Assembly (NCBI GenBank): GCA_018896645.1
Contig: JAHIMF010000041.1
Coordinates: 1,980-65,979, forward strand
DNA: 64,000 nucleotides
Direction: 5' to 3'
From: Patescibacteria group bacterium
GTDB lineage: Bacteria > Patescibacteriota > Patescibacteriia > UBA2591 > JABMQE01
A program made the position numbers and the translations under genes. The notes below the pieces were generated by a model. That model was not told the DNA's origin. It was given only the letters and a program-made list of their open reading frames with translations, and did not search any database. Below, in pieces: positions 950-23,764 of this stretch. How positions within the stretch are numbered: position 1 is the stretch's first letter; each line of letters opens with the position of its first letter.

Positions 950-2171
950 ACTTCCCCCAGAAGACAAGGGCGGTGCGGAAATCGTTTGTTTAAATTTGGC
1001 CTGGGAATATCAAAAACAAGGTAATGAAGTGGGAGTTATCACAACTACTCGCAAGAAGGAATCACAAGGAAATTCTCTGGACCGCGGAGTGAAGGTCCAC
1101 CGGATTTATTCTAATTACCATAATCGTTGGCAGCCGTATGTCAGTTTGTATAATCCGTGGGTAGTTGCCAGGGTCAGGAAAATTTTGGCCAAAGAAAAAC
1201 CAGATATTGTCCATGCCCATGTTGTTCATAAACATTTGTCGTATTACAGCTTGAAGATAGTAAAAGAAATGGACATACCATTGGTTATTACTTTGCATGA
1301 TTGCCTATCAATTTGCTATAAAAAGTTCACTTGTTTTTATGACATTAAGGATTTGGATAATTCGCCTAATATTAATTATAAAGTCAAATCCTTAAAATGT
1401 TGGTGGTGCCAAAAATTAAGATATTTTCCTTTGCGCAATTTATTTGTCAGACGTTTTTTAAATACCTATCCTGATAAAGTCATAACAGTCAGTCAGGAGT
1501 TAAAAAAATTAGTGGAAGCCAATGGTATCAAAGTATCAGACACAATTCATAACGGTGTTGATGCGGATAATTTTAAGATTGATGATCAGGAAATTGAAAA
1601 TTTTAAAAAACTTTTTTCTTTGAGCGGGAAGAAGATAGTACTTTGCGCTGGTAGGTTGAATGAAACAAAGGGTTGTAATCAGCTTTTAGCTGCGATGAGG
1701 CGGGTTGGTCAAAATTTGACGGATGTTGTTTTACTGTTGCTTGCGAAAAAAGATGAATACAGCGAATCTTTGGTTAAGCGGGCCGCGGAGTCGGGCGTTA
1801 AAATAATTCTCACCGGCTGGCTGAACGGCAAAGATTTAATTGCGGCATATCATGCGGCCGATCTGGTAGTGACGCCCTCCATTTGTTTTGATACTTTTGG
1901 TATGGTAAACATTGAGGCAATGGCTTCTGAAAAGCCAGCCATCACCTCATGTTTTGGCGGCGGCAAGGAGATTGTAATTGATAACCAATCGGGTTATATA
2001 GTTAATCCTTTTGATGTTAATATATTCACCAAGCGGCTTAAAGCGCTGCTAACCGATGCTGACAAGGCCAAGGAGATGGGCGAATGCGGCAGAAAGATTG
2101 TGCAAGAGAAATTTCTTTTAGAATACTCGGCGCAAAAATATTTAAATTTATTTAAAGAATTAACCTCATGA
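924..2171 (+). CDS. glycosyltransferase family 4 (GT-B fold)
   Basis: 415 aa ORF. C-terminal 'NIEAMASEKPAITSCFGGGKEIVIDNQSGYIV' is the GT4 E-x7-E-like donor-binding region. Confidence 0.75.
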   Translation: MKILILMDKLPPEDKGGAEIVCLNLAWEYQKQGNEVGVITTTRKKESQGNSLDRGVKVHRIYSNYHNRWQPYVSLYNPWVVARVRKILAKEKPDIVHAHVVHKHLSYYSLKIVKEMDIPLVITLHDCLSICYKKFTCFYDIKDLDNSPNINYKVKSLKCWWCQKLRYFPLRNLFVRRFLNTYPDKVITVSQELKKLVEANGIKVSDTIHNGVDADNFKIDDQEIENFKKLFSLSGKKIVLCAGRLNETKGCNQLLAAMRRVGQNLTDVVLLLLAKKDEYSESLVKRAAESGVKIILTGWLNGKDLIAAYHAADLVVTPSICFDTFGMVNIEAMASEKPAITSCFGGGKEIVIDNQSGYIVNPFDVNIFTKRLKALLTDADKAKEMGECGRKIVQEKFLLEYSAQKYLNLFKELTS

Positions 2172-3613
2172 CGGATGCGATTTTATTTTTCCCAAAGACC
2201 GGGCCCAATTCAACGGCTCATCTCCCGATGAGCTTGCTTATGGTTGCGGCCCCTTTAGTTGAGCATGGTTATGAGGTTAAAATCATTGACCAGCGGTTAG
2301 AGGATGACTGGCAAGAAAAGTTGGCATCTGCTCTTAACGGCGGCGTTCTATTGGTTGGTTTTTCTGTGCTAACAGGCAAACAAATACTCTACGGTTTGGA
2401 AGCTTCTAAGTTCATTAAAGAAAACAGCAATGCTAAGGTGGTTTGGGGCGGGGTCCACCCCTCTTTATTGCCAAGACAAACTCTTGAGAATCATTATATT
2501 GATTTTGTAATTATTGGTGAAGGCGAGCAGGTGTTTGAGCGCTTGTTAGAGAAATTGAAAAATAGTGATGCCAATTATTCAGATGTGGATGGCCTCGGAT
2601 ATAAAAAAGATAGTGAAATATACATCAACGAGCAAAAGGATTTTATTGACCTAAATGCTCTGCCGTCGATTCCTTATAATTTAGTTGAAGTTGAGAAATA
2701 TGTTACCAAAAAATCATTCGCTTCGGGAAATCCTGGCCGAAATGTGGCTATTTATACCAGCCGCGGTTGTCCGCATCGTTGTGCGTTTTGCTACAACCTG
2801 AAATTTAACAAACGGCGCTGGCGAGGCAAGTCAGCCGAGAAGGTAATAATCGAGCTTGGACATTGGATAGACAGGTATAATATCAACGCTTTTGAAATTG
2901 AAGATGACGAATTTTTTGTTGATTTGAACCGCGTGCGTGAAATCTGCCTAAAAATCATTGAAAAAGGTTGGCAAATAGAAATATTTTCCAGCTCGCGGGT
3001 AAATTATTTAGAAAATATGGATGATGATTTTTTAAAATTGCTGTTTCGCGCTGGCTTCAAAACTTTGTCCTTCGGAGTAGAATCTGGCTCGCCAGAGATC
3101 CAAAAAGAAATTCATAAGGATATAACGAACGAACAGGTGTTCTCCGCAGTGAGGCGGTTGGGCAAAGCCGGCATCAATTCAAAATATTATTTTATGTGTG
3201 GTTTTCCCGGCGAGTCCATTGGGCAGTTGTACGAGACGATTGATTTGATTTACAAAATGAAGCAGGAGGACCGGCGCGTGCGCATTCCGCCTTGGCGCAT
3301 TTATACGCCATATCATGGCACCGAGTTGTATGAGAAGAGTATTCTGTCTGGTTGGCACCCGCCCAAGAACCTCAAGGCCTGGGCAAATTATGATTTTGAA
3401 ACAGCGAATATGCCCTGGCTGAACCGAAAAAAGAAAGTTATTATAAAAAACGCCGCTTGGATGTCAAAATATGTTGTTCTTGACAATAATGCCGGCGGCG
3501 GTATAAAATATAAACTGGGCCGGTTGTTTGGCAAGTGGATTGATTTCAGGTGGCGGCATCATTGGTTTTTCTTCGCGCCGGAAAGATCAATTCTATTGCT
3601 GGTAAAAGATTAG
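2168..3613 (+). CDS. B12-binding domain radical SAM protein (paralog 1 of 5)
   Basis: 481 aa ORF. N-terminal Rossmann-like B12-binding domain ('VVWGGVHPSLLP'), then 'SRGCPHRCAFCYN' carrying the CX3CX2C radical SAM cluster motif. Start overlaps the upstream stop (ATGA). Confidence 0.8.
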   Translation: MTDAILFFPKTGPNSTAHLPMSLLMVAAPLVEHGYEVKIIDQRLEDDWQEKLASALNGGVLLVGFSVLTGKQILYGLEASKFIKENSNAKVVWGGVHPSLLPRQTLENHYIDFVIIGEGEQVFERLLEKLKNSDANYSDVDGLGYKKDSEIYINEQKDFIDLNALPSIPYNLVEVEKYVTKKSFASGNPGRNVAIYTSRGCPHRCAFCYNLKFNKRRWRGKSAEKVIIELGHWIDRYNINAFEIEDDEFFVDLNRVREICLKIIEKGWQIEIFSSSRVNYLENMDDDFLKLLFRAGFKTLSFGVESGSPEIQKEIHKDITNEQVFSAVRRLGKAGINSKYYFMCGFPGESIGQLYETIDLIYKMKQEDRRVRIPPWRIYTPYHGTELYEKSILSGWHPPKNLKAWANYDFETANMPWLNRKKKVIIKNAAWMSKYVVLDNNAGGGIKYKLGRLFGKWIDFRWRHHWFFFAPERSILLLVKD

Positions 3614-3716
3614 GTTAGTATAATGTTTGATTTTAAGCTAACCGCAGATTAAGGCGCTTGTTCCTCAATTAGGCTTTGTCTAAGTTTAACACGCCTCACA
3701 TTTAATTTATAGCATT

Positions 3717-5231
3717 ATGAAAGTTTTGCTGGTTAATCCGGCTCGCACCTATTATAAAGGTTCAAAGGGAGTGAGGTTAGGATTGCCTTTGGGTTTGATG
3801 TATATTGCCAGTGTTTTAGAGAAAAATTCCATTCCGGTAAAAATATTTGACACTCTTATTTCTGCTTCCACTAAAATTACAGAGCATTCAGACCATATTT
3901 ATCACGGGGTGGGTGATGATTTTTTTAAAGAGGTTATTGTCAGGGAAAAACCGGATGTGGTAGGGATTACTAGTCCGTTTACGGCTCAGGTTGGGAATTC
4001 TTGCGAGGCGGCTAGACTAATTAAAGAAGTTGATCCCAATATTTTTGTGGTTATCGGCGGACCTCATTTTGCAGTTTTGGGCCAAGAATTTTTAAAAGAA
4101 AACAAAAATATTGACGCCGCTATGATTGGCGAGGGCGAATTGGTAATGCCGACACTGCTAGAAACAATAGAAAATAACCAACCTTTTAATGCGATTGATG
4201 GATTGATTTATCGCTCTATTAATGACAGCGGAGAATCAGTGGTGATTGCGAATAATCCGAAGCTTATAAATGATTTGGATAGTTTGCCATTCCCAGCTTA
4301 TCATTTGATTGATATGGAAAGATACTTTGACTTTTTGAGAGAAGGTCTTTACGCTCGGCCGGGCCAACAAAAAAGGTCAATCTCAATGATTACGAGTCGG
4401 GGCTGTCCGTTTAATTGTGTTTTTTGTTCAATTCATTTGCATATGGGAAAAATTTGGCGCGCTCATTCGGCTGATTATGTAATTTCTCATATTGAGCGGG
4501 TGGTTAATAAATACGGGGTGGAGCACATATCGTTTGAAGATGATAATTTTACATCAAACTTCAAGAGATGCGAGAAGATCTTTGATTATTTATTAGAAAA
4601 AAAGATTAATATTACCTGGGATACTCCAAACGGAGTTCGGGCAGATACTCTAAATAAGGATTTGCTTAAAAAAATGAAAAAATCGGGCTGTACGGAGTTA
4701 GTAATCGGGACCGAGTCCGGAGATCAGGATACCTTGGATAATATTATTAAAAAAAATTTAAGATTAGAGAAAGTTGTTCAAGTTGCCCGATGGTGCAAGG
4801 AATTAAAGATTGAACTTAATTCTTTTTTCGTGATTGGTTTTCCCGGAGAAACTAAAGAGAAAATTCAGAAAACAATTGATTTTGCTTTTTTGCTTTATAA
4901 AAAATTTAACGTAAGACCGAATTTGATGACAGCTACTCCGTTAATCGGAACCGAACTACATAAGATAGTTGTCAGTAATGGATATCTAATAGAAGAGGTG
5001 ACGGCTGAAAATTTAGCTTTGGCAACTCAACCAAGAGGTAAGCCCTTAATCAAGACCCCCGAGTTTTCTCCTGAAGATTTAAAGGAGTCTGACAGAGAAT
5101 TGAAGACACGGTTAGCGAGATTAAATTTAGTCCGAAGATTAATAAACCCCAGGGAGTGGCTTAGGTTGTTGAGATTATTTTTAAGTAGGCCTTCAAGATT
5201 AATTTTGTATCTAAAAAAGCTTTGCGGTTGA
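3717..5231 (+). CDS. B12-binding domain radical SAM protein (paralog 2)
   Basis: 504 aa ORF. 'VVIGGPHFAVL' B12-domain motif, then 'SRGCPFNCVFCS' (CX3CX2C). Confidence 0.8.
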   Translation: MKVLLVNPARTYYKGSKGVRLGLPLGLMYIASVLEKNSIPVKIFDTLISASTKITEHSDHIYHGVGDDFFKEVIVREKPDVVGITSPFTAQVGNSCEAARLIKEVDPNIFVVIGGPHFAVLGQEFLKENKNIDAAMIGEGELVMPTLLETIENNQPFNAIDGLIYRSINDSGESVVIANNPKLINDLDSLPFPAYHLIDMERYFDFLREGLYARPGQQKRSISMITSRGCPFNCVFCSIHLHMGKIWRAHSADYVISHIERVVNKYGVEHISFEDDNFTSNFKRCEKIFDYLLEKKINITWDTPNGVRADTLNKDLLKKMKKSGCTELVIGTESGDQDTLDNIIKKNLRLEKVVQVARWCKELKIELNSFFVIGFPGETKEKIQKTIDFAFLLYKKFNVRPNLMTATPLIGTELHKIVVSNGYLIEEVTAENLALATQPRGKPLIKTPEFSPEDLKESDRELKTRLARLNLVRRLINPREWLRLLRLFLSRPSRLILYLKKLCG

Positions 5232-5287: not shown

Positions 5288-8146
5288 ATGCCTAAACTGT
5301 TTAGAATATTTAAATATATTCCCGGAACCCAAAACAGGTTTTTTAAAAAACTTATTTTGGTTTTTTTCATTTTAGGTTTGATAGCTGTTATCTTTCTGAC
5401 AATTTTTGTGGCCGAGTATAAGGATTTTAATGACGTAATAAAGGCCAAGGTTCCGAAGTTGTCTTGGCTGGCTGAGTCTTACAATCTTCTGGATGTTCTT
5501 TATTTTTATTCTTATTTTCAGGAAACAAAATTACCTAAATACGAGATAATTATAGAAGAAGAAAATTTAAAAGTCCTTAATGAAAATTTGCCCGATATTA
5601 GTGAAATAACTTTGAGCGAGGAGTATAAAAAGAATTCAGTACCAGCGATCTTAAAATATAATGGAGAGGATTTTGAAGTAAAGGTAAGATATCGGGGAGA
5701 TTCGCAGGTTCATTGGGCATATCCTAAAAAGTCTTGGCGCGTGGAGTTAACAAATAAAACAATGGAAGACAAGGGTTTGATTAACGGTATGGAAAGTTTT
5801 AACTTGATTATAGGCGGGGACCGGTCTTTGGTCACAGAACAGCTAAGCTATTACCGATCCAAAAAATTAGGCTTAGCAGTGCCGCACAGCGAATTTGTTG
5901 ATTTAGAAATTAATGGAAAATATCAAGGAGCATATTGGCTTCTGGAGACCTGGGATAAAACATTCCTAGAGAAAAATAAAGTGGCATCAGATATAAACCT
6001 TTATGGCGAGAATGTTGAACGTTATGAACAAAAAAATATCTTTGCCAGTACTGACAGATGGACAAAATATACTTCAGACGAGATGGCGCTTTTTGATAAT
6101 TTTGCGGAAGTTGAGCAGTTATTGTACTTGTTAGAAATTCCAGACGAAGAATTTTATGAAAAAATTTCCGAACTGGTTGATTTGGACAGTTTCTATAAAT
6201 GGAACACGATTACTTTATTAGTCGGTGGCGATGGTCAGAAATATTCTAATAACATTCGAATGTATTTTGACAATACGCAGGGCAAGTTCAATTTTATTCC
6301 TTGGGATATCAGCCAGGTAGAAAGGCCAGAGCTTTATGATGCTTATGTAAGCCCGATTATAGACCGGATTTTAAGCAATCCAAGGTTTTTACAAGAGAGA
6401 AATAATTATTTATGGGATTATGTAAAAAATGAAGAAAATTTAGAGGATGACTTGAAATATTACGATGAGCTTTTTGGTAAAGTTAAAATTTCCTTTCATA
6501 AAGATCATTTAAAACTTTATAGTAATTTATTTTTTGACAGACAAGTTAGCAACCGAAGAAAATTGTTGATTGAACAGGTTGAGAACATAAAAAATAAACT
6601 TTCCGAAGCCAAGGTTTCGGTGGAAGCGAGGATTGACACTGATTTTAACAGTAGTCGAAGAGTAGTGGCGGACTTAAATTTTTTAACTCAAAATTTTAAT
6701 AGTTTAAACATAAAAAAAATTTCTTTTAGATGGGATGAGCCGGGAAGTTTTAAATTATATGATGATACCAATAATAATGGGATTTGGGACGATAAGGATC
6801 AGTTAGTCGGGAATTTTAAAAGAGATAATAAATGGCACGAAATTGATTTGAATAAAGAAATTTTTGCCAGGCGGGATTATGATGATTATAAGAAATTTAA
6901 ACAGGATAAGTTTTATCAAGAGAACTTTTTTAATCCCGTTAACATCATTATTACGCCATACCGTCTTTTCATAGTTTCGCAAGTACCTAAATTTGTGCCA
7001 GAAAATTTTAAATTTAAAATAGAGAATTCTTTAACCGGCAAAGAGGCCGATTTGACTAAGCGCTTTATTGACCTGGCCACTTTTGCTAATTTTGAAGATA
7101 TTTTTAAAAATAGAGAGCAATTTATTTTGGATAATCCGATTTTTAAGTTGAACGAAGAGGGGATAGTTTTACAAACTGGAATTTATCAAATTAACAAAGA
7201 CATAATAATACCCAAGAATACAAGCTTGACAATTCAAGTCGGGACGATTTTGAACTTTGCTTCTTCTACCTCCATGGTCTCTTATAGTCCGGTTAATATT
7301 TCCGGTACTAAGAATAATCCTATTATTTTTACGGCTCAAGATAAAAACAGGCCTTGGGGCGTCCTTGGTTTGACATCCGGAGCGGACGGCAGTATTATTA
7401 ATTATGCTATATTTGAACACGGAAGCGATGATTATATTAACGGAATCTATTTTTCCGGCATGGTTTCTAGTTATTTTGCCAAAACTGCGATTGACAACTC
7501 TACTTTCCAGTATGCCCAAGCTGATGACGGTTTAAACATCAAAAATTCTAGTTCTACTATATCCAATAGTTTTTTTCACCGCAATAGCGCTGATGGTCTA
7601 GATTTGGACTTTAGTAATTCTCGCGTGGAAAATAATCGTTTTATTGGCAATGGCAATGATGGTTTGGATCTCTCAAGTCATCAGCCATTTATTTTGAATA
7701 ATTATATTGAGGGATCGGGCGATAAAGGAATTAGCATTGGCGAAGATTCAAAAGCGATTATTATTAATAATTTGATGAAAGACAATAAAATTGGCATTGA
7801 GATAAAAGACCTTTCCGAACCGCAAGTGATTAATTGTACTATTATTGGCAATGAGATTGGCATAAATTCATACCAAAAGAAGGCAATCTTTGGAGGCGGA
7901 CATGGAAAAGTTTACAACTCTGTAATCTGGGCAAACGATGAGCAAATTACGTTTGACAATAAGTCCACAATCAGCATTAACCAAACTGACGTTGAGGGCG
8001 GTTACGAGGGTAATGGCAACCTGAATTTAGATCCAAAATTTGCTGATGATTTTAAAACTCAAAATAGCCAGATGAGGATTAATTTGGATTATTTAAAACA
8101 ATATTTAGAGATTTTGCCCAAAGAATTATTTATGGGAATATATTAG
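5288..8146 (+). CDS. CotH kinase-family protein with C-terminal right-handed parallel beta-helix (PbH1) repeats; N-terminal membrane anchor
   Basis: 952 aa ORF. 'VKVRYRGDSQVHWAYPKKSWRVEL' is the CotH signature (RGxS...PKKS[YW]). C-terminal third shows repeated 'NxxxxNxxDGLDL / IGxExxxI' beta-helix repeats. Hydrophobic N-terminal helix. Confidence 0.7.
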   Translation: MPKLFRIFKYIPGTQNRFFKKLILVFFILGLIAVIFLTIFVAEYKDFNDVIKAKVPKLSWLAESYNLLDVLYFYSYFQETKLPKYEIIIEEENLKVLNENLPDISEITLSEEYKKNSVPAILKYNGEDFEVKVRYRGDSQVHWAYPKKSWRVELTNKTMEDKGLINGMESFNLIIGGDRSLVTEQLSYYRSKKLGLAVPHSEFVDLEINGKYQGAYWLLETWDKTFLEKNKVASDINLYGENVERYEQKNIFASTDRWTKYTSDEMALFDNFAEVEQLLYLLEIPDEEFYEKISELVDLDSFYKWNTITLLVGGDGQKYSNNIRMYFDNTQGKFNFIPWDISQVERPELYDAYVSPIIDRILSNPRFLQERNNYLWDYVKNEENLEDDLKYYDELFGKVKISFHKDHLKLYSNLFFDRQVSNRRKLLIEQVENIKNKLSEAKVSVEARIDTDFNSSRRVVADLNFLTQNFNSLNIKKISFRWDEPGSFKLYDDTNNNGIWDDKDQLVGNFKRDNKWHEIDLNKEIFARRDYDDYKKFKQDKFYQENFFNPVNIIITPYRLFIVSQVPKFVPENFKFKIENSLTGKEADLTKRFIDLATFANFEDIFKNREQFILDNPIFKLNEEGIVLQTGIYQINKDIIIPKNTSLTIQVGTILNFASSTSMVSYSPVNISGTKNNPIIFTAQDKNRPWGVLGLTSGADGSIINYAIFEHGSDDYINGIYFSGMVSSYFAKTAIDNSTFQYAQADDGLNIKNSSSTISNSFFHRNSADGLDLDFSNSRVENNRFIGNGNDGLDLSSHQPFILNNYIEGSGDKGISIGEDSKAIIINNLMKDNKIGIEIKDLSEPQVINCTIIGNEIGINSYQKKAIFGGGHGKVYNSVIWANDEQITFDNKSTISINQTDVEGGYEGNGNLNLDPKFADDFKTQNSQMRINLDYLKQYLEILPKELFMGIY

Positions 8147-8147
8147 T

Positions 8148-9842: not shown

Positions 9843-9854
9843 GCTAATGTGTGA

Positions 9855-9979
9855 CATTAAAGCAATTATGAAAATACAAGAATAACGACGAATAGTTATT
9901 TTTATATTCTTGTATTCTTGTTATTTTCATAGCAGGTATCCCTCTATTTTTATAATTTCATAACTTCAATGCTTTAATG
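9855..9979. repeat. MITE-like intergenic element, family A (copy 1): 10-bp terminal inverted repeats CATTAAAGCA/TGCTTTAATG with an internal hairpin
   Basis: TIRs seen at 9855-9864 and 9970-9979. Internal inverted repeat GAAAATACAAGAATA...TATTCTTGTATT. Related copies at 29784-29906 and 25383-25426. Confidence 0.5.
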
Positions 9980-9993
9980 TTTTTTAATGAAAC

Positions 9994-10767: not shown

Positions 10768-10786
10768 CTTTTAATAATAAAAAATT

Positions 10787-14732: not shown

Positions 14733-15575
14733 TTATTTCTTTCTAAACACTATTTCTATCTTAGCAGCATTCAAATCGCGAGGATTTATATTTTCTAAAC
14801 CCATTAAAATATCATCATGAATTTTAACCTTAATTTGAGCTGCCTGGCTTTTGATGCTTTTTATTTCAAAATCGTATTTTTGGGCTAACTTCCTGTAATG
14901 TGGCAGGAGCTTTCGATTCATAAAGCAAGTTTTTTGATCGTTCACTCTTTTCCATGTTTTTGGGGAGTATTGCAGATGACGAAATTTATTATTGAATAAG
15001 AATTTTAGAAGTGGCAGAGAGCTGAATGGGTAATACAGATGGTCAACAAAATCTACGACATGGTACATAGTACCACTATTTTTTAGCCATTGATTAAAAT
15101 TTTTAAAAATTTGGTTTAAGTCTGGTATATGTTCAAGTGTTGTATGTGAGAATATGGTATCAATTTTCCCATTGTAGTCAGATAACAAATTTTTTTCATC
15201 AGCACCTTTTTTATAGATTTTTATTTTTCCAAAAAGTTCTTCCTTAACAATTTTATCAGGGAATAATTTTTCAATCTCAACTGCATACTGCGTGAGTTGC
15301 TTGGTTGCATTTTTGTCAATGCAGGGTTCTATGACAATAACTTTTTTGGCACCAGAATAGATGAGGTACAAAGCCGTATAGAGTTGATTACCAGCCCCAA
15401 CTTCAATAACAGTTTTGTTCGGGACGGACAAGGCATTAACATATTGTTCAGCAATAGCTACAAAAGACTTGGCACTTTTTGGTTTAGCTATTTTTTTTTT
15501 CAAGAAATAAAATAATTTTGGATTAAATTTTTTTCTAATTAAACGATATATAAGGTCAGGTATCATTTTAGCCAA
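14733..15575 (-). CDS. class I SAM-dependent methyltransferase (putative)
   Basis: 280 aa ORF. 'VIEVGAGNQLYTALYL' glycine-rich motif I and a downstream acidic motif. Confidence 0.45.
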   Translation of the reverse strand: MAKMIPDLIYRLIRKKFNPKLFYFLKKKIAKPKSAKSFVAIAEQYVNALSVPNKTVIEVGAGNQLYTALYLIYSGAKKVIVIEPCIDKNATKQLTQYAVEIEKLFPDKIVKEELFGKIKIYKKGADEKNLLSDYNGKIDTIFSHTTLEHIPDLNQIFKNFNQWLKNSGTMYHVVDFVDHLYYPFSSLPLLKFLFNNKFRHLQYSPKTWKRVNDQKTCFMNRKLLPHYRKLAQKYDFEIKSIKSQAAQIKVKIHDDILMGLENINPRDLNAAKIEIVFRKK

Positions 15576-15654: not shown

Positions 15655-16659
15655 CTAGGAGTCTGGCAATGAGACCGGGGAGCATGGTTTCTTTTTTAAC
15701 ATTATAACAGCATATATTATCAATGTCATTAGTGGAATAAATAGCAACATAACGACTCTTTGGCCGACGAGGAATGTACTAATATCTTCAGGAGCAATAG
15801 CAATTACTTTAAGAATAACAAACCAGCCAGCCTCAAAAATACCAATTCCACCAGGAGTAAAAGATATAAATAAGGCGAGCTGGGTGATAGGAATACTCAT
15901 GATGACAACACCGAGAGGAATGTTGATATTAAAAGTTTTAAAAAGAAGATAAAAGAGTAAACCTCGAGAAAGAAATTTCACAAATGAAATAAGAACCAGT
16001 TTAATAGAGAAGGGCTTAGTAAAAACAATACTTTGGGTTTCATCAAGTAGTTTTGCAGTATCAATCCTTTTTTGCAAGAAAGGGATTTTTTTTATAACCC
16101 TTATAGCTAGTTTGTAAAGAATAAAAAGGAGATGACTGACATCTTTGTTAATAAAAATGATAAAAACGATAAGTAACGCAATAGCCAAACAAGAAAGCGC
16201 CAGTGCTAAGCCCAGGCTGATAATGTTAAGAAAAAAGAGAAGAGATGGTACGACTACCAGTAAAAGGTTTATAAGATCAAAAATTCGTTCAATTAGGGTA
16301 GCGCTAGTTGCTTTAAAGAGAGATATTTTTTTAGAAGCTTTCAGAGCGGCGACCCTGGCGGTAAAACTGACTGGTTCATGAATAGTAAAGGAGCCGATCA
16401 AAAAGCTAAGTGTGTAGTAAAAGAAATATTCGATAAAAGACATGACTTTTGCTTTTTGGACATAGTTAACAATCAGCCCCCAGCGGTAGGAGAACAGGCC
16501 ACACATAATAAGAGAAGTAAAAAAAGAAAGAGTAAGATACGTAATATTTACTCCCAGCAATGAGCGCCAGGAGAAGTCTTTGTTAATATAAAGTATGAAG
16601 CCAAAAATTATAAGACCAAGGAGCAATAAAAGAATTTTTTTAGTAGTTATCTTTTTCAT
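15655..16659 (-). CDS. flippase-like / lysylphosphatidylglycerol-synthase-TM-domain family membrane protein
   Basis: 334 aa ORF, polytopic. Resembles UPF0104/LPG_synthase_TM proteins that commonly accompany GT2 enzymes in glycan loci. Confidence 0.5.
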   Translation of the reverse strand: MKKITTKKILLLLLGLIIFGFILYINKDFSWRSLLGVNITYLTLSFFTSLIMCGLFSYRWGLIVNYVQKAKVMSFIEYFFYYTLSFLIGSFTIHEPVSFTARVAALKASKKISLFKATSATLIERIFDLINLLLVVVPSLLFFLNIISLGLALALSCLAIALLIVFIIFINKDVSHLLFILYKLAIRVIKKIPFLQKRIDTAKLLDETQSIVFTKPFSIKLVLISFVKFLSRGLLFYLLFKTFNINIPLGVVIMSIPITQLALFISFTPGGIGIFEAGWFVILKVIAIAPEDISTFLVGQRVVMLLFIPLMTLIIYAVIMLKKKPCSPVSLPDS

Positions 16660-16751: not shown

Positions 16752-17618
16752 ATGATAATAGATCAAGAATTGACAAAAAAAATTGAAGCTTACTGCGATT
16801 CTTATATTGAAGGATCTGGTAGTATCGCCGCAGTATGCGGAGCAGGAGGAAAAGATCGTCATGTCCAAGCAATAATAGATAACTATGTGGGTAAGATTTT
16901 GATTAGATTATTAAAAAGGATAGATAAAATCAGCAATAAAAAGATTTTAGATTATGGTTGCGGTCTTGGGGGTTCAATTGTGGCATTTGAAGAAGAAGGG
17001 TTTAATGCGATTGGGGCCGAAGTTGATGCAAAGGCAGTGGAAATTTGCAAAATGAGGGTAAAAAATATTCAGAATATAATTCAAATTTCAGAAAACGGCC
17101 TGCCTTTCAAAGATGCCAGTTTTGATATAGTAACTAGCCAATTAGTGATAGAACACACGAAGGATCCCAATAAGTATCTCTTTGAAGCACTAAGAGTTTT
17201 AAAGCCGGGGGGCAAATTTTTACTAATCGCGCCTAATTATCTTTTTCCCTGGGAGGGTCATTATCGGGTGTTTTGGTTGCCGTATTTATTTCCTGTTTCT
17301 AAGAGATTATTTAAAGTTTACTTAAAGTTACGAGGAAGGGATTCTCGGTTAATAGATTACGTCAATCTTAAGATAACCCCAGGTTATATAAAAAAAACAC
17401 TAAGGGGGATAGGCTCTTTTACTATTGAAGACATGAGTGTTGATATTTTCAAAGAGAAACTGACAAGCCCTAAGGAAATTCCACTACCAATGGTTGCCAA
17501 TTTTTTTAGTAAGACCAGAACCAATCCTTTAGTAAAACTTTTCATCAGTTTTTTTATTGCTACCATCAAAATTAGCAAACTCTATTATCCAATGATATTG
17601 GTGATAAACAAGACTTAG
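16752..17618 (+). CDS. SAM-dependent methyltransferase (type 11)
   Basis: 288 aa ORF. 'ILDYGCGLGGSIVAFEEEGFNAIGAEVD' and 'LKPGGKFLL' motifs. Confidence 0.7.
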   Translation: MIIDQELTKKIEAYCDSYIEGSGSIAAVCGAGGKDRHVQAIIDNYVGKILIRLLKRIDKISNKKILDYGCGLGGSIVAFEEEGFNAIGAEVDAKAVEICKMRVKNIQNIIQISENGLPFKDASFDIVTSQLVIEHTKDPNKYLFEALRVLKPGGKFLLIAPNYLFPWEGHYRVFWLPYLFPVSKRLFKVYLKLRGRDSRLIDYVNLKITPGYIKKTLRGIGSFTIEDMSVDIFKEKLTSPKEIPLPMVANFFSKTRTNPLVKLFISFFIATIKISKLYYPMILVINKT

Positions 17619-17620: not shown

Positions 17621-18784
17621 TTATTTTAAGCACGATTGAAGGACTTTTTCTGTTGTTCGAGCTACGTATTGAGCATCCGAACCAGACATTTTAGGAGTGA
17701 GTGGCAAAGATATAGTAGCCTTTGAGACTTTCTCACTTACAGGAAAATCACCAATGTGATAGCTCAAATCTTTTTTATAGAATGGATGGAGATGAATAGC
17801 TTTATAATGAATTGCGGCACCGATGCCTTGCGTGTTAAGCTTTTCAATAATCTTATTTCTTGCAAATTTAAATTTTGATAGATCTAGAATGAGCACATAA
17901 AGATGCAAGGCGTGGCGGTTTTTTTGAATATCAGAAGGTCGGTATTGGAGCCTAAGATAGTCTAGTTTTGAAAATACATTGTCATAGATTTTGGCATAGG
18001 CCTCTCTTGTTTTGAGGAATTTATTGATTTTATTAAGTTGATGGAGGCCCAAAGAAGCTTGGATATCCGTCATGTTATATTTATAGCCGGGATAGATAAT
18101 TTCACTTAAGATTAATTTTTTACTCTCATATCTTTTCCAAGCATCAGTGCTTAAGCCATGCAATCTTAGTATTTTAATCTTTTCCGCTATTTTTTCATCA
18201 TTAGTAGTAATCATACCACCTTCACCCGTGGTTATATTTTTGTTTGCATAAAAGCTAAAGCATGTCAGGTTACCAAAACTACCAATTTTTTTTCCTTTAT
18301 ATTTGGCACCTACTGCATGAGCCGCATCTTCAATAATTATTAAATTGTATTTTTTAGCGATTTTTTTTATTTTATCCATATCGCAAGGCAGTCCTCCGAA
18401 ATGGACCGGAATAATCGCTTTAGTTTTTGGAGTAATTTTAGCCTCAATTAAATTCGGATTGATATTTAATGTCTTAAGTTCAATATCCGCGAGGATTGGT
18501 CTGGCGCCCACATGTTTAATGACATTTACTGTGGCGGCAAATGTTAGAGGAGTGGTGATTACCTCATCTCCCGGACCAATATTTGAAACTAACAGCCCAA
18601 GGTGAAGAGCGGCAGTGCAGGAGTTTACTGCCAATGCATATTTAGCTCCCACATATTTCGCAAAGTTTTTTTCAAACCTAAAACACTTCGGGCCGGTCCC
18701 TATCCAACCTGATTTTAAAGTGTCAACCACCTCATTAATTTCCTCGTCACCAATAAAAGGTGCGCCAAAAATTATTTTTTTCAT
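17621..18784 (-). CDS. DegT/DnrJ/EryC1/StrS-family PLP-dependent sugar aminotransferase (WecE-like)
   Basis: 387 aa ORF. 'IIEDAAHAVGAKYKGKKIGS' and the 'FSFYANKNITTGEGG' PLP-lysine region. Confidence 0.85.
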   Translation of the reverse strand: MKKIIFGAPFIGDEEINEVVDTLKSGWIGTGPKCFRFEKNFAKYVGAKYALAVNSCTAALHLGLLVSNIGPGDEVITTPLTFAATVNVIKHVGARPILADIELKTLNINPNLIEAKITPKTKAIIPVHFGGLPCDMDKIKKIAKKYNLIIIEDAAHAVGAKYKGKKIGSFGNLTCFSFYANKNITTGEGGMITTNDEKIAEKIKILRLHGLSTDAWKRYESKKLILSEIIYPGYKYNMTDIQASLGLHQLNKINKFLKTREAYAKIYDNVFSKLDYLRLQYRPSDIQKNRHALHLYVLILDLSKFKFARNKIIEKLNTQGIGAAIHYKAIHLHPFYKKDLSYHIGDFPVSEKVSKATISLPLTPKMSGSDAQYVARTTEKVLQSCLK

Positions 18785-18824
18785 AATAATCCTTTTATAA
18801 AAGTAAATAAAAAAGACTAAAATC

Positions 18825-19595
18825 CTAAAGCCAGAAATGATAAAAATTTTCTTTTTTTTCTAATCGGTATCCACATTTTTCATATAATCTGCAAGCTGCA
18901 GTGTTTGCTTCTTGAGTAATGACCTGTCCAAACTTATATTTATGAGAGATGAACCAGGATTGAGCAGACTTAACTAAAGATGTACCTAAACCCATTCCTC
19001 TCGCATTGGGGCTAACAGCAATTAAACCAATGTCTCCTCTATTATTTTTTTTGCCTAAGGTAATCATTCCAACAATTTTGCCTTTTTTTTTGGTAACTAG
19101 TACAGCATCTGCTATGGTTTTGTTCAGTGAATTGGTTATCCAAATTTTATACAGAGCCTCAAATTTTTTTTTGCTGATTTTCTGATCAACATTATATCTT
19201 GAGTAGAGACCGGCTTGGATTGCAAGATTTTTTAGTTCCGTATTTGGTAAGTTTTTATTGTGTTCCTCGACTTTGATATTTAATTGTAAATGTTTAACGG
19301 GTATTTTTTTTAGATTGATGATGTAGATTACTTTACGATCTGCAAGAAATCCGTTTAGGGTTTCTGCCGCTTTTTGAGAAGCCTCATCAGTACTATCAGA
19401 TGCCCAGTAGACTAAAGAAACCCTACTCTTCCTTAAACTTGTAAGGATTTTTTTCAGTGAATTTAAGTTTAGTTTATTAGGTATGATTTTTGCCACAGTA
19501 AACCCGAAAAAATCAGTGTCCCATTTAAGTATCTCCCATTCTGGATTTTGTTGATTTTTAATAGTAGTTTTTTTCAATTTTTTATGTGGGTTCAT
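18825..19595 (-). CDS. WecD-like dTDP-4-amino-4,6-dideoxy-sugar N-acetyltransferase (GNAT C-terminal domain)
   Basis: 256 aa ORF. N-terminal 'LKWDTDFFGF' parallels the 'LTWENAFFGV' of E. coli WecD. The C-terminal GNAT fold ends '...TAACRLYEKCGYRLEKKENFYHFWL', matching the WecD C-terminus. Confidence 0.6.
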   Translation of the reverse strand: MNPHKKLKKTTIKNQQNPEWEILKWDTDFFGFTVAKIIPNKLNLNSLKKILTSLRKSRVSLVYWASDSTDEASQKAAETLNGFLADRKVIYIINLKKIPVKHLQLNIKVEEHNKNLPNTELKNLAIQAGLYSRYNVDQKISKKKFEALYKIWITNSLNKTIADAVLVTKKKGKIVGMITLGKKNNRGDIGLIAVSPNARGMGLGTSLVKSAQSWFISHKYKFGQVITQEANTAACRLYEKCGYRLEKKENFYHFWL

Positions 19596-20778
19596 TTTTT
19601 TCTATTAAAGATTTATAATATTTTGCAATTTTAGGTATAATTTTTTTTTGTGAATGATGCAAGGTAACATAATCCAAGGCATTGCTTTCTATTCCAATTT
19701 TAAGATTTTTGTCTTGGATTAATTTAGTAATAACTTGAGCTAGGTCGGCAATATCTTTTTCTTTAACTAAAAATCCATTATAGCCATTTTTAATAATTTC
19801 TGGCAGGCCGCCAGTAGCAAAAGCAACGGCAGGCAAGCCAGAAGCCATGGCTTCCAGGGGAGTAATTCCTTGAGGTTCGCCTTTTCCTTGATAGGTTATA
19901 GACGGTATCACCAGGATATCGGCAAGATTATATATTTCAGGTAATTTTTTGTGGGCTATGCTTCCTAAAAAAAGAACTTTTTTTTCTAGATTATTCTCTT
20001 TAATCTTGTTTTCTAAAATTTCTTTTTGAGAACCGTCTCCAACATAGACAAGTTTGAGAGGAGTGCTCGGATTCCCTTTAATTATCTTTAATAATGCTAA
20101 TAGGGGGTAGATTACTCCTTTTCTTTCAGTCATTCTGGAAACGCACAGAACAACAAAATCTTCTTTATTAATAGAAAGTTTTTCCCTATTTATTTTTTTG
20201 AGCTCTAAATTGGGACGAAAGACAGAGGTATCTATAAAATTGTTTATCCTAACGATTTTTTTAGGATTGATATTTTTTGAGATAAGATCATCATCTATGT
20301 ATTTTGCGGTCGAGGTAATGAGTGTTGCTCGCCCGTAGGCCTTTATTATTTTTTTTAAAAAATATTTTTTAAGGGTTTTGTCGCGGCTTAAATATTCTGA
20401 TGATTCTATAAAGCCGTGAGCAGAAAGAATCAGCGGTTTTTTTAATAGCCGAGTTAAGGGATAGCTGACATTCGCCGCTGAAAAGTCCATAGCATGAACT
20501 ATGTCGTATCTTTTACTGATGAAAGCTTTGTAAATATTAAAAAGCAACAAAGATTTATTTAATTGATAGGCAATAATGGTTAACAGTGATGATTTTTTTA
20601 AAAAGCGGGTAATAGTTGTGACAAAATTATTTTTTGTGGTGGCCATCTTTTTTATACCGAAAGCACTGATTATATCCACATCATGCCCTAAATCTTTAAG
20701 TCCTAAAGAAAGGACGTTCATGTATACAACCAATCCTCCTTCATGGGGCCTAGTATTTGTGCAAATACAAATTTTCAT
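19582..20778 (-). CDS. glycosyltransferase family 4
   Basis: 398 aa ORF. 'GEPQGITPLEAMASGLPAVAFATGGLPEII' GT4 signature. Confidence 0.75.
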   Translation of the reverse strand: MKICICTNTRPHEGGLVVYMNVLSLGLKDLGHDVDIISAFGIKKMATTKNNFVTTITRFLKKSSLLTIIAYQLNKSLLLFNIYKAFISKRYDIVHAMDFSAANVSYPLTRLLKKPLILSAHGFIESSEYLSRDKTLKKYFLKKIIKAYGRATLITSTAKYIDDDLISKNINPKKIVRINNFIDTSVFRPNLELKKINREKLSINKEDFVVLCVSRMTERKGVIYPLLALLKIIKGNPSTPLKLVYVGDGSQKEILENKIKENNLEKKVLFLGSIAHKKLPEIYNLADILVIPSITYQGKGEPQGITPLEAMASGLPAVAFATGGLPEIIKNGYNGFLVKEKDIADLAQVITKLIQDKNLKIGIESNALDYVTLHHSQKKIIPKIAKYYKSLIEKNEPT

Positions 20779-20931: not shown

Positions 20932-22347
20932 ATGAAAATATTATTAATAAATGAACCCTTGCGCGACAGTATCGCTGATAATGACCAAGTTAACCTAGCC
21001 GAAGAAAGCCACATGATTCCTCCTTTGGGTTTGCTTTATATTGCTTCAGTTATTAAAAAAAAATCAACTCATAATGTTAGGCTTTTTGATTGCCAAGTTG
21101 ATAAGTTATCATATGATGGTATTCGAGAAGCAGTAAAGAAAATTAAACCCGATGTCGTGGGCATGAATACGCTCACCTTTACCCTTATTGAGGTTTTGGA
21201 AGTGGCGCGACTGGTGAAAGAAGTTGATCCTAAAATAAAAGTTATTTTAGGCGGGGTTCATGTAAACATTTACCCCGAAGAAACCATTTCATTTCCTGAA
21301 GTGGATTTTTTAATACTTGGCGAGGGAGAGAATGTTATTGTTGAACTGTTAGATGCGATTAGCGATGAGGACAAGCTACGGCAAGTGACTGGCGTTGTTT
21401 TTAAGAATTCTCAAGGTGAAATTATAAATACTGGAAAGCGCCCGCTTATAACTAATCTGGATGAAATACCCTTTCCAGCGCGCGAGTTAACGGCTTATCA
21501 GAAATATACAGGCTTGCTCTCAAGCGAGTCGCCAATTACCAGTATGTTAACCTCCCGCGGTTGTCCATATAATTGTTTATTTTGTCACCGTCCCCATTTT
21601 GGCAGAATTTTTAGGGCTAGGAGCGCTGGCAATGTAGTAAAAGAGATGATACTTTGTAGGGATATGGGTATTAAAGAAATTATTATTTATGATGATACAT
21701 TTACGATTGATAGACAGCGTGTGGTTGATATTTGTAAGCAGTTAATAGATAATAAGGTGAAGATTAAATGGGACGTGCGAGCTCGCGTAGATACAGTTGA
21801 TAAAGAATTACTTAATTTAATGAAAGAAGCTGGCTGTGTGCGGATTCACTATGGTGTGGAAGCAGGGACTCAAAAAATATTAGATGTTTTGCGTAAAGGA
21901 ATAACACTTGATATGGCTTATGATGTTTTTAAAATGACAAAGCGGGCCGGTATCGGAACTTTGGGTTATTTTATGATTGGCTCACCTCGGGAAACCAGGG
22001 AAGATATTATGGCTACGATAAAATTTGCTACTAGTTTGAAGGCGGATTATATTTTTGCTGGCATCACTACTTTATTTCCAGCAACTGATTTATATCAGAT
22101 GGCGCTTAAGGAAGGTGTGATTAAAACAGATGTATGGAAAGAGTTTGCGCGTAGCCCACAAGAGAATTTTGTTCCGCCAATCTGGGATAAAGAGCTTTCG
22201 CAAGAAGAACTTGGCGAATTGATTAAAATGTTTTATAGAAAATTTTATAAACGGCCTAGCTATATTATTAAGAACCTATTAAGCATCCGGTCTCTCGAGG
22301 AGTTTAGGCGAAAATTTTCAGCCGGGTTTAATATTTTAAGAATTTGA
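20932..22347 (+). CDS. B12-binding domain radical SAM protein (paralog 4)
   Basis: 471 aa ORF. 'VILGGVHVNIYP' plus 'SRGCPYNCLFCH'. Confidence 0.8.
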   Translation: MKILLINEPLRDSIADNDQVNLAEESHMIPPLGLLYIASVIKKKSTHNVRLFDCQVDKLSYDGIREAVKKIKPDVVGMNTLTFTLIEVLEVARLVKEVDPKIKVILGGVHVNIYPEETISFPEVDFLILGEGENVIVELLDAISDEDKLRQVTGVVFKNSQGEIINTGKRPLITNLDEIPFPARELTAYQKYTGLLSSESPITSMLTSRGCPYNCLFCHRPHFGRIFRARSAGNVVKEMILCRDMGIKEIIIYDDTFTIDRQRVVDICKQLIDNKVKIKWDVRARVDTVDKELLNLMKEAGCVRIHYGVEAGTQKILDVLRKGITLDMAYDVFKMTKRAGIGTLGYFMIGSPRETREDIMATIKFATSLKADYIFAGITTLFPATDLYQMALKEGVIKTDVWKEFARSPQENFVPPIWDKELSQEELGELIKMFYRKFYKRPSYIIKNLLSIRSLEEFRRKFSAGFNILRI

Positions 22348-22351
22348 TGAT

Positions 22352-23764
22352 ATGTCTACACTACTCGTAAATCCTCCCTACAGCGAAAAGATATACCAAT
22401 CTAAGAAAGCGCCTTCGGTTCAGCCGCCGATTGGCTTGGCCTACTTGGCGGCTTTTTTAGAACAGGAAGGCGAGAAGGTAGGAATTTTGGATGCCAATGC
22501 CGAACAGTTGAGTGTTGAAGAAACCGCCAGGCGTATTTGTGATTCTGGCGCTAAATTTATTGGATTTGGCGCGGTGACTCCGATTATTCCTATTGTTTAT
22601 AGAATTGCCGGGTTGGTGAGAAAGGATTCTGATGCAGTAATTTTTGTTGGCGGTCCCCATGTCACTTTTATGGACGATGTCACCCTAAATGACTGCCAGG
22701 CAATTGATTATATTGTTCGTGGTGAAGGTGAGCTTGTGATAAACAATTTAATAAGGACGGTTAAAGTTAATGGTGATATTTCTAGAGTTCGGGGGATTAC
22801 TTACAGAAAGGGTGATAGTATTGTAAAGAATGAGCCGGAAAAACTTATTACTGATATTAATACACTCCCGTTTCCGGCCCGGCATTTACTGCCATTGGAT
22901 TTATATCGGCCATCGCCGTTATTTGATCGTGGTTATAAAGGCAAGAGCTATGCCCGGATTATGACGACCCGGGGTTGTCCGACTCGCTGTATCTTTTGTG
23001 TTTCTCCTCATTTCTGGGGTCGAGTTCGGATACGCAGCGCCGAGAATGTTTTTGCTGAAATAAAACATTTGTATGATATTTATGATGTTAGACACATAGA
23101 TTTCTTGGATGACACTTTAACTTTGGCGCCATCACGGATGGAGAAAATCTGCGACCTAATGATTGAACATAGTTATAAGATTAATTGGACTTGCTATTCC
23201 CGTGTTGATACTCTTAGCGAGGCGCTGGTCAAAAAAATGAAAATGGCTGGGTGCTCTGTTATTCAGCTCGGGGTAGAAAGCGGGAATCAGAAAATTATTA
23301 AAAGAATCAAAAAAAATATCCGTCTTGAGGATGTGGAGCGGGTGGCGCGGATTGTTAGAAAAAATAATATTAAACTGATGGCAGACTTTATGATTGGCCT
23401 GCCCGGCGAGACCGAGGAAACAGTGATCCAAACGATTGACTTTGCTAAAAAAATAAAGCCCAACATTGCGGCTTTTTGTATTACTACACCCCTGCCAGGT
23501 ACTGAATTATACTGGGAGCTTCGTCGTGAAGGCAAGATTAAACCAGGTTATATCTGGGGCAATATGGGTTTGCACTATGGTTCAAACTATAGCACTGAAT
23601 ATTTATCAAGCGGTCGGTTAAGTGAATTATATCACTTAGCTCATAAGAAATTTTATTTGCGTTTTAAGTTTTTTGGACAGTCGTTTGTCTGGCTTTTAAA
23701 AAACCCGTATGATATAAAGAATTATTTTTACTTGGCAAAAGATTTGCTTTTAAAGAGGGTTTAG
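22352..23764 (+). CDS. B12-binding domain radical SAM protein (paralog 5)
   Basis: 470 aa ORF. 'IFVGGPHVTFM' plus 'TRGCPTRCIFCVS'. Lies 4 nt after paralog 4, forming a tandem pair. Confidence 0.8.
   Translation: MSTLLVNPPYSEKIYQSKKAPSVQPPIGLAYLAAFLEQEGEKVGILDANAEQLSVEETARRICDSGAKFIGFGAVTPIIPIVYRIAGLVRKDSDAVIFVGGPHVTFMDDVTLNDCQAIDYIVRGEGELVINNLIRTVKVNGDISRVRGITYRKGDSIVKNEPEKLITDINTLPFPARHLLPLDLYRPSPLFDRGYKGKSYARIMTTRGCPTRCIFCVSPHFWGRVRIRSAENVFAEIKHLYDIYDVRHIDFLDDTLTLAPSRMEKICDLMIEHSYKINWTCYSRVDTLSEALVKKMKMAGCSVIQLGVESGNQKIIKRIKKNIRLEDVERVARIVRKNNIKLMADFMIGLPGETEETVIQTIDFAKKIKPNIAAFCITTPLPGTELYWELRREGKIKPGYIWGNMGLHYGSNYSTEYLSSGRLSELYHLAHKKFYLRFKFFGQSFVWLLKNPYDIKNYFYLAKDLLLKRV

Follow-up and report, generated by a model that had tools for sequence, protein, structure and literature searches.

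What would five B12-binding radical S-adenosylmethionine (SAM) proteins do within a single glycan-assembly locus of a bacterium with a small genome? The question is raised by a 64,000-nucleotide stretch of Patescibacteria DNA (contig JAHIMF010000041.1 of assembly GCA_018896645.1), hereafter the window, in which nearly all genes from position 176 to about 48.9 kb are glycan-related, giving a locus of about 49 kb that includes the five genes, numbered rSAM1 to rSAM5 (Table 1). The reading that we favor, with a probability of roughly 0.55, is that five class B radical SAM enzymes were recruited into one glycan locus, where, to judge from genomic context, they would tailor lipid-linked sugars at the cytoplasmic face of the membrane, most likely by C-methylation.

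A Pfam search confirmed the domains that a first-pass annotation of the window had assigned to the five open reading frames (ORFs): each product carries a B12-binding domain (PF02310, 61-82 bits; gathering score 32.1 bits) N-terminal to a Radical_SAM domain (PF04055, 82-97 bits; gathering score 29.5 bits). The PF02310 scores are 2-2.5 times the gathering threshold, and at domain E-values of 1e-17 to 1e-27 across the five proteins chance is not an issue. Neither of the two results that the same annotation had named as fatal to its proposal, absence of a B12-domain match or loss of the cysteines, was obtained, as both PF02310 and the cysteine triad are present in all five. The SRGCPxxCxFC motif reported for the whole set was found in four, with Thr replacing Ser in rSAM5 (TRGCPxxCxFC), and a five-way alignment showed RGCPxxCxFC to be invariant. 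Scanning of all five sequences revealed a single CX3CX2C per protein and no second cysteine cluster motif in any of them. All five therefore possess the core domain and Fe-S motif of the class B radical SAM superfamily together with a cobalamin-type N-terminal domain, and the two-domain fold of its solved members was seen in the model of rSAM4 only.

Public gene calls start rSAM3 26 codons further in (460 aa, for example on a sibling contig), which is why the exact 486-aa protein is absent from the protein collection; the longer form is probably right because its N-terminus aligns with the four other proteins from residue 1. The host is, as first supposed, a small-genome uncultivated bacterium, represented by a Patescibacteria/Parcubacteria metagenome-assembled genome (MAG): the GenBank label reads [quoted passage not shown], one sibling record is assigned to Candidatus Parcubacteria, and contigs of MAGs GCA_018894455.1 and GCA_022012905.1 are 99.9% identical to the window. 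No further B12-binding radical SAM (B12-rSAM) gene was found within the 64 kb. An ORF at 49142-49861 (- strand, 239 aa) that contains CX3CX2C was rejected as a sixth radical SAM gene, as it had no Pfam match even at E<=1; its CPMGCAEC near residue 38 marks it as a candidate very divergent small radical-SAM-like protein, or is a chance motif.

The five proteins share 26-36% identity with each other (34% between rSAM3 and rSAM1), whereas rSAM1, rSAM2, rSAM4 and rSAM5 each have their own orthologs, at 42-67% identity, in other phyla and in Archaea. The set is thus not a local expansion but consists of distinct subfamilies, these four traced as old ones, gathered in one locus. Calling them paralogous, as had been done, is misleading in view of these orthologs, which were found in the Candidate Phyla Radiation (CPR), DPANN archaea, Asgard archaea, Omnitrophota, Chloroflexota and methanogens. 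Thousands of relatives of about 470 aa exist for rSAM4, the best 120 at 52-58% identity, and those listed include Buchananbacteria, Portnoybacteria, Nanoarchaeota and a deltaproteobacterium. Orthologs of rSAM5 (42-59% identity) were found in Nanoarchaeota, Nanohaloarchaea, Heimdallarchaeota, Pacebacteria, Omnitrophota and Nitrospirota, those of rSAM2 (46-67%) in Patescibacteria, Nanoarchaeota and Ca. Argoarchaeum, and those of rSAM1 (51-57%; loci L094-L098) in groundwater and sediment metagenomes; none was retrieved for rSAM3, whose best match among the fetched loci had 29% identity (L117). Nor did the presumption hold that five copies are exceptional, as related loci, which abound in metagenomes, carry 3-7 B12-rSAM genes. 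Single metagenome loci had seven (L152), six (L117) or five (L108 and L110), a Patescibacteria contig (L092) had four plus a SPASM radical SAM gene in 17.5 kb, and of the 48 fetched loci with rSAM4 relatives that span 15 kb or more, 18 contained 2-4. Five such genes in 22 kb is typical of a widespread pattern.

The synteny comparison foreseen in the first-pass annotation revealed conserved glycan-assembly partners for rSAM1, rSAM2, rSAM4 and rSAM5. All ORFs from 80 loci around rSAM4 relatives (reference genomes), 80 around rSAM1 relatives (metagenomes) and nine single-ortholog contexts were compared with the window proteins. The partner of rSAM4 was GT2_26519, a glycosyltransferase family 2 (GT2) protein that we assign to the polyprenyl-phosphate sugar synthase type because of its GT2 domain, its two C-terminal transmembrane (TM) helices (residues 211-280) and its best NCBIfam matches, AglJ, PgfS, PpgS and ArnC, all of them under the equivalog cutoffs. 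When rSAM4 orthologs were defined by at least 44% identity and available upstream sequence (n = 21), a GT2_26519 ortholog (35-63% identity) was located within 3 kb in 15 loci, in 8 of which it directly preceded the rSAM4 gene in the same orientation, with -3 to 13 nt between the two; the corresponding count for lower-identity rSAM4 relatives was 9 of 49. The pairing was seen in CPR, Iainarchaeum, Methanosarcinales, Anaerolineae, the Planctomycetes-Verrucomicrobia-Chlamydiae group, Planctomycetota and others. In a neighbor-joining tree without bootstrap support, rSAM4 orthologs (L008-L050) formed, apart from the four other window proteins, one tight clade in which bacterial sequences were intermixed, at about 50% identity, with those of Archaea (Methanosarcinales, Iainarchaeum, Woese-, Nano- and Altiarchaeota), which suggests, though such a tree should be taken lightly, that the GT2-rSAM4 pair may have moved between domains of life.

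Further assembly genes join this pair in CPR loci, namely the initiating transferase Bac_transf (L004, L009, L014, L020, L022 and L050) and GT-C genes like PMT2_11522 (L004, L014, L022 and L050); L009 and L050 carry a CE4/DUF3473 deacetylase gene between the GT2 and rSAM4 orthologs, and in L004 a 290-aa methyltransferase gene follows rSAM4 and a flippase-like gene. Of these loci, L009, L020 and L022 belong to Saccharibacteria MAGs. PMT2_11522 homologs (27-38% identity) adjoin the rSAM4 orthologs of these four GT-C loci as well as the rSAM1 orthologs of L096 and L097, which they follow. All three rSAM5 orthologs examined, one of them on a complete Heimdallarchaeota chromosome, are accompanied by a PF03706 flippase-like gene and a GT2 gene, and two (L088 and L089) also with CE4/DUF3473 deacetylase and FemAB-like genes. 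The order in L088 is deacetylase-FemAB-DUF362-rSAM5-flippase-like-GT2, the DUF362 gene (51% identity) being immediately upstream of rSAM5; the window has the same genes in convergent arrangement. Orthologs of rSAM2 overlap or adjoin genes for family 4 glycosyltransferases (GT4) and Wzx-type flippases, GT4_924-like genes flank rSAM1/rSAM2 orthologs in L091 (41% identity), L098 and L104, and a deAc_176 homolog (43-44% identity) adjoins rSAM1-type genes in L098 and L050. The arrangement deAc_176-rSAM1-GT4_924-rSAM2 of L098 mirrors the block at the start of the window. A Wzy_C protein with tetratricopeptide repeats (TPR), as in the window, is also encoded near rSAM5 and rSAM2 orthologs (L090 and L091).

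Gene fusions agree with this neighborhood evidence. The rSAM4 ortholog of L050 (10001-12394), a Patescibacteria contig that shares most of its gene order with the window, is a single ORF of 797 aa in which the B12-binding and Radical_SAM domains are continued by LPG_synthase_TM (134 bits), the flippase-like domain. Within the rSAM1 family, fusions were found to Bac_transf (P0198), to a methyltransferase fragment and a GT4 domain (P0177) and to a class I methyltransferase (P0180), and an rSAM5-like enzyme is likewise fused to a class I methyltransferase (P0369). A separate protein of 2331 aa (P0238) harbors five radical SAM and three B12 domains.

Radical SAM enzymes require SAM and a cytoplasmic reductant. 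[quoted passage not shown] In such a scheme rSAM4 would act on the polyprenyl-phosphate-monosaccharide made by GT2_26519, in some lineages after de-N-acetylation by the CE4 enzyme, and rSAM5 on a deacetylated amino sugar aminoacylated by the FemAB-like protein, while rSAM1, rSAM2 and rSAM3 would take intermediates that come from the GT4 enzymes or are bound for the PMT_2 GT-C. Flipping of the products and their attachment outside the cell would follow, as the task of the flippase-like protein, GtrA, the PMT_2 GT-C and the Wzy_C protein. Editing at the polyprenyl-phosphate-sugar stage has precedent in ArnD of the Arn pathway and in DprE1/E2.

Several observations weigh against this reading. Since no curated equivalog cutoff was reached, substrate and reaction of the five enzymes are inferred from context alone, and the locus also encodes nucleotide-sugar enzymes (DegT, epimerases, NTP-transferase) that leave room for soluble nucleoside diphosphate (NDP)-sugar substrates. 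The closest solved structure to rSAM4 is AprD4, a cobalamin-independent sugar dehydratase; no gene for B12 uptake or salvage is visible in the window, and to our knowledge CPR bacteria are believed to lack cobalamin synthesis. When a purpose-built hidden Markov model was run over the 6 kb around 20 rSAM4 orthologs, only 5 had a PF03706-like gene there, so that the GT2-rSAM-flippase-GT-C module in its full form is found chiefly in CPR. Each fusion is known from a single metagenome assembly, and frameshifts or errors of gene calling could have produced it. In view of the 5 of 20 loci, a universal module of rSAM4 and flippase-like gene was rejected and the claim narrowed to the GT2 pairing.

The nucleotide-sugar enzymes are the basis for the best-surviving alternative, in which soluble NDP-sugars or free oligosaccharides would be tailored in the cytoplasm before use by glycosyltransferases. 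GenK, GenD1, Fms7 and AprD4 act on soluble aminoglycoside intermediates, AprD4, the nearest solved structure, binding a soluble pseudodisaccharide; DegT, GNAT, several epimerases/dehydratases, an RmlD-like protein and an NTP-transferase are encoded in the locus, and DegT genes are frequent near B12-rSAM genes in related loci. However, the proteins conserved beside these enzymes or fused to them (two-TM GT2, Bac_transf, flippase-like, PMT_2) reside in the membrane and serve the assembly of lipid-linked intermediates, and no NDP-sugar enzyme is a consistent immediate neighbor of any traced family, leaving this alternative unlikely.

For the chemistry on lipid-linked sugars, methylcobalamin-mediated C-methylation of unactivated sugar (or N-acyl) carbons would be most likely, because every functionally characterized group in the B12-rSAM sequence network of a 2026 review contains C-methyltransferases (PMC12931638). 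The C-methylation or epimerization put forward in the first-pass annotation is in this sense a sensible prior expectation. According to the same review, methylating and non-methylating members cannot be told apart by sequence, the non-methylating ones share one large sequence group with methylases, and the largest groups of this very large family are still unexplored (PMC12931638). No CHARACTERISED family fits, as none of the five proteins reaches any curated NCBIfam cutoff; these scores served as a proxy for placement against GenK, Fom3 and similar enzymes. The best matches, with 135-246 bits against cutoffs of 480-750, were to HpnJ, BchE, the Sden_1168/PhpK P-methylases and ApyD, and AprD4, HpnR, TsrM, KedN5, the methyl-coenzyme M reductase glutamine methylase and a ladderane-associated family scored still lower; scores with the models for KedN5, TsrM and C-methyltransferases of ribosomally synthesized and post-translationally modified peptides (RiPPs) all fell far short of the cutoffs. 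BchE (TIGR02026, cutoff 481) gave 134-232 bits for the five and is the top match of rSAM1 (153 bits). These scores are far too low for BchE identity, which was rejected, and the Joint Genome Institute (JGI) labels "anaerobic Mg-protoporphyrin cyclase" and "YgiQ" carried by homologs are, on sequence grounds, over-annotations. The top match of rSAM2 is the Sden_1168 P-methylase family (NF038361, 246 bits, cutoff 575; cutoff for PhpK, TIGR04479, 600 bits), and a role as P-methyltransferase was discarded given this score and the absence of phosphonate-related domains among the Pfam matches of the window.

HpnJ (TIGR03471, cutoff 577.6 bits) is the top match of both rSAM4, with 243 bits over the full length, and rSAM3, the four proteins other than rSAM4 scoring 122-210 bits. 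Rearrangement of the HpnJ/OxsB type would be a serious alternative chemistry, above all for rSAM4: it, and possibly others, would carry out a non-methylating ring contraction of a lipid-linked hexosamine to a carbocyclic or cyclitol head group. Such a contraction of lipid-linked hexos(amin)es has been proposed for HpnJ, acting after HpnI (a GT2) and HpnK (a deacetylase), and for the calditol synthase Cds (PMC13459092). The GT2-CE4 deacetylase-rSAM4 order of L009 and L050 mirrors HpnI/HpnK/HpnJ, as do the GT2, deacetylase, rSAM4/5 and PF03706 protein of the window, and the shared sequence group of methylases and non-methylating members is also compatible with it. HpnL is presumably a PF03706 member as well. 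Nevertheless, no HpnJ score comes to half the cutoff, the deacetylase occurs in a minority of rSAM4 loci, and the HpnI, HpnK and HpnL models were not matched by the window's GT2, deacetylase or PF03706 protein, for which a 30-bit HpnB match was all that appeared; nor is there a hopanoid gene context (HpnI, HpnK, HpnL and core genes such as those for squalene-hopene cyclase and HpnH), as no hopanoid-associated domains occur among the Pfam matches of the window. Membership of HpnIJKL was accordingly rejected, and the system kept as a mechanistic analogy. The reaction of HpnJ has itself never been demonstrated in vitro (PMC13459092), and the class I methyltransferases beside the rSAM genes do not tell methylation from rearrangement. 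We regard ring contraction as doubtful, and C-methylation as the better account of the lipid-linked chemistry.

Architecture alone is no proof of B12 use, as AprD4 and ArsL are cobalamin-independent despite it and sit inside the B12-rSAM sequence network (PMC12931638), and the Protein Data Bank (PDB) was therefore searched with the N-terminal domains only. A profile of the five domains matched TokK (1.5e-12), OxsB (2e-10), TsrM (6e-8) and MgmA (3e-4), all of them structures solved with bound cobalamin, and gave no match to AprD4; a GGxH segment is common to these domains and TokK. AprD4 is the top PDB sequence match of rSAM1, rSAM2 and rSAM4, a likeness restricted to the radical SAM half, as are the 38-142 bits obtained with the AprD4 diol-dehydratase family (NF033070, cutoff 500). 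The AlphaFold model of rSAM4 (pLDDT 89.6, pTM 0.88), compared with the PDB by Foldseek, also had AprD4 (6FD2) as its best match (TM-score 0.76, 23% identity, full length), followed by full-length matches to MgmA (9CCB; PMC11796369), TsrM, OxsB, CysS and TokK at E-values of 1e-18 to 1e-23. Dehydration, deoxygenation or epimerization of sugars without cobalamin, catalyzed by some of the five after the manner of AprD4 and ArsL, would suit an organism unable to make B12; against the AprD4 matches, however, stand the N-terminal profile and the PF02310 scores, which make this improbable. Cobalamin binding by the five proteins is likely, as predicted from sequence.

The membrane-associated partners could also be reconciled with lipid substrates, through methylation, cyclization or cross-linking of polyprenyl carriers or (scavenged) lipid tails, as by GrsA/B, Gmm, HpnP/R or the ladderane-associated B12-rSAM, and TIGR04072, a B12-rSAM family of lipid biosynthesis, was matched with 94-172 bits, as was HpnR at low score. 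All these scores are under cutoff, and the conserved cassettes hold glycosyltransferases, sugar deacetylases and amino-sugar enzymes but no lipid-biosynthesis genes, so that lipid substrates seem highly improbable. Least probable is a peptide or protein substrate (RiPP-like, glycoprotein or aminoacyl side chain; compare PoyB/C, ApyD and MgmA), for which sub-threshold ApyD and RiPP C-methyltransferase matches, MgmA among the structural neighbors of rSAM4 and the FemAB-like aminoacyl transferase gene adjoining rSAM5 might be cited, but the contexts are consistently those of glycan assembly across phyla, no RiPP-associated domains occur among the Pfam matches of the window, although no search aimed at short ORFs for precursor peptides was made, and an aminoacyl group on a sugar would still amount to glycan tailoring.

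Tailoring of lipid-linked sugars has partial precedents in known systems. In HpnI/HpnK/HpnJ of Burkholderia and Methylobacterium, as in the scheme above, a GT2 attaches an N-acetylhexosamine to a membrane lipid, the sugar is deacetylated to the free amine, and a B12-rSAM enzyme is proposed to reshape it; the window differs in having no hopanoid genes, a CE4 deacetylase and a GT2 of the polyprenyl-phosphate type, the acceptor presumably being polyprenyl phosphate. GenK, GenD1, Fms7 and MoeK5 combine the same two domains and act on unactivated sugar carbons, MoeK5 being proposed to do so on a lipid-linked sugar, but they belong to actinomycete secondary-metabolite clusters, in contrast to the primary surface glycan assembly of CPR and DPANN considered here. 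AprD4, the apramycin 1,2-diol dehydratase, shares the two-domain layout of the rSAM4 model and has a sugar substrate; unlike the proteins of the window, whose N-terminal domains match true cobalamin-binding domains, it binds no cobalamin. The deacetylase of CE4+DUF3473 type and the FemAB-like protein encoded near rSAM5 find their best sub-threshold matches in the XrtA/PEP-CTERM exopolysaccharide (EPS) pair (TIGR03006/TIGR03019). Both scores are under cutoff, exosortase and PEP-CTERM genes were not seen in the window, and no B12-rSAM enzyme is known as a partner of that pair.

A parallel in layout is found in the three-component systems GtrB-GtrA-GtrV, CsbB-GtcA-YfhO and ArnC-ArnD-ArnEF-ArnT, which likewise have a two-TM GT2, a CE4 enzyme (compare ArnD), a small or flippase-like protein and a GT-C (PMT_2, ArnT superfamily). 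The window has each component, with a GT2 bearing C-terminal TM helices, the PF03706/TIGR00374 protein at 15655, GtrA at 34407 and PMT_2 at 11522, and its DegT, GNAT, GT2, CE4, flippase-like and PMT_2 genes parallel ArnB, ArnA, ArnC, ArnD, ArnEF and ArnT. It departs from these systems in that a radical SAM gene is the most conserved neighbor of the GT2 and is fused to the flippase-like domain in one genome; we know of no three-component glycosylation system that includes a radical SAM enzyme. It is possible, though we would put it below even odds, that the rSAM4 family, and with it the other four, represents an undescribed glycan-assembly step in which radical SAM/cobalamin chemistry on polyprenyl-phosphate-linked sugars forms part of a four-part GT2-radical SAM-flippase-GT-C system.

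If so, surfaces of CPR, DPANN, Asgard and other anaerobes may bear C-methylated or ring-rearranged (carba)sugars, and the surface coat of an episymbiont would depend on cobalamin from hosts or neighbors. More generally, radical C-C or C-H chemistry would join the known edits of lipid-linked sugars, unusual C-branched or carbocyclic sugars would be placed on surfaces that mediate episymbiont-host contact, and cobalamin would be a nutrient that reduced genomes must obtain from outside. The first-pass annotation had called the arrangement undescribed, and a literature search of incomplete coverage found nothing relevant on B12-rSAM enzymes in CPR/DPANN glycan loci or in lipopolysaccharide (LPS) or EPS pathways; the proteins themselves already carry a generic B12-binding radical SAM label in GenBank. 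The enzyme class is known and the context has partial precedents, but the subfamilies are orphans. As these families are abundant in uncultured CPR, DPANN, Asgard and Omnitrophota, their conserved partners (polyprenyl-phosphate GT2, initiating transferase, flippase-like protein, GT4 enzymes) and fusions provide a specific substrate hypothesis for several orphan groups, and the value of the window lies in being a clean, complete example of a widespread arrangement and not a unique case.

Table 1. Genes of the glycan locus, with positions in the window.
Feature	Position	Strand	Product	Evidence and remarks
deAc_176	176-949	+	CE4 polysaccharide deacetylase	PF01522 77.8 bits
GT4_924	924-2171	+	GT4 glycosyltransferase	PF00534/PF13439; 3' end overlaps rSAM1 start by 4 nt
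rSAM1	2168-3613	+	481 aa	PF02310 61 bits, PF04055 86 bits; CX3CX2C at residue 201
rSAM2	3717-5231	+	504 aa	PF02310 64 bits, PF04055 88 bits
CotH-CotH-VTC-DUF4956	5288-11470	+	952, 564, 257 and 227 aa	PF08757 twice, PF09359, PF16316
PMT2_11522	11522-13132	+	GT-C membrane glycosyltransferase, PMT_2, about 10 TM segments	PF13231 29.5 bits (cutoff 26.1)
rSAM3	13252-14712	+	486 aa	PF02310 77 bits, PF04055 82 bits
Methyltransferase	14733-15575	-	class I SAM methyltransferase	PF13489
Flippase-like	15655-16659	-	LPG_synthase_TM, about 9 TM segments	PF03706 79 bits; TIGR00374 64 bits (cutoff 43)
Methyltransferase	16752-17618	+	class I SAM methyltransferase	PF08241 74 bits
Amino-sugar branch	17621-20778	-	DegT aminotransferase (WecE-like, 17621), GNAT (18825), GT4 (19582)	PF01041 449 bits, PF00583, PF00534
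rSAM4	20932-22347	+	471 aa	PF02310 80 bits, PF04055 93 bits
rSAM5	22352-23764	+	470 aa	PF02310 82 bits, PF04055 97 bits; 4 nt downstream of rSAM4
Methyltransferase	23761-24411	-	class I methyltransferase	PF13649
DUF362	24395-25366	-	DUF362 protein	PF04015
FemAB-like	25437-26513	-	aminoacyl-transferase type	PF13480/PF02388; TIGR03019 pepcterm_femAB 120 bits (cutoff 260)
GT2_26519	26519-27373	-	polyprenyl-phosphate sugar synthase type (GtrB/ArnC/AglJ-like)	PF00535 116 bits
CE4 deacetylase	27370-28239	-	with DUF3473 (XrtA-EPS type)	PF01522 and PF11959; TIGR03006 187 bits (cutoff 276)
Bac_transf	28301-29701	-	initiating phosphoglycosyl transferase	PF02397 224 bits
Wzy_C	29947-32151	+	O-antigen ligase/polymerase-like membrane protein with TPR repeats	PF04932 and TPR
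Locus continuation	34407-48880	+	GtrA (34407), epimerase, two GT2, GT4, intein-containing 4,6-dehydratase, RmlD-like, NTP-transferase	
AA_kinase	37550-38314	-	AA_kinase	within the otherwise + strand continuation
Polytopic protein	41024-43537	+	837 aa, about 15 hydrophobic segments	among glycosyltransferases
Dehydratase	44299-46344	+	NAD-dependent sugar 4,6-dehydratase/epimerase, 681 aa	GDP_Man_Dehyd/Epimerase

The glycan neighbors first reported for the region of the five genes were recovered as regards the two GT4 genes, the DegT/WecE-like and GNAT genes and three methyltransferase genes, whereas the GT2 and Bac_transf genes lie just beyond its end at 23764. The locus further encodes enzymes of dTDP-sugar type. 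Past about 53 kb the genes are of housekeeping type, among them an EPSP_synthase-family gene (possibly MurA), an S41 protease and CTP synthase. The CotH-CotH-VTC-DUF4956 block, which separates rSAM2 from the PMT_2 gene within the + strand array, is a candidate polyphosphate/kinase module of the CPR cell surface; its 952-aa CotH protein includes a beta-helix/NosD region. The 837-aa polytopic protein, which matched no Pfam family, is a candidate novel GT-C, polymerase or flippase. The sugar 4,6-dehydratase is split at about residues 102-428 by an intein (Intein_splicing and LAGLIDADG_3) and is accompanied by the RmlD-like gene at 47205 and the NTP-transferase gene at 48158. The FemAB-like gene is intact in the window, whereas in a sibling contig (L001, 13086-14162) it has an in-frame stop in a patch of clustered substitutions, and a second sibling contig (L002) shows the same split gene calls, reflecting either strain-level inactivation or a local assembly variant.

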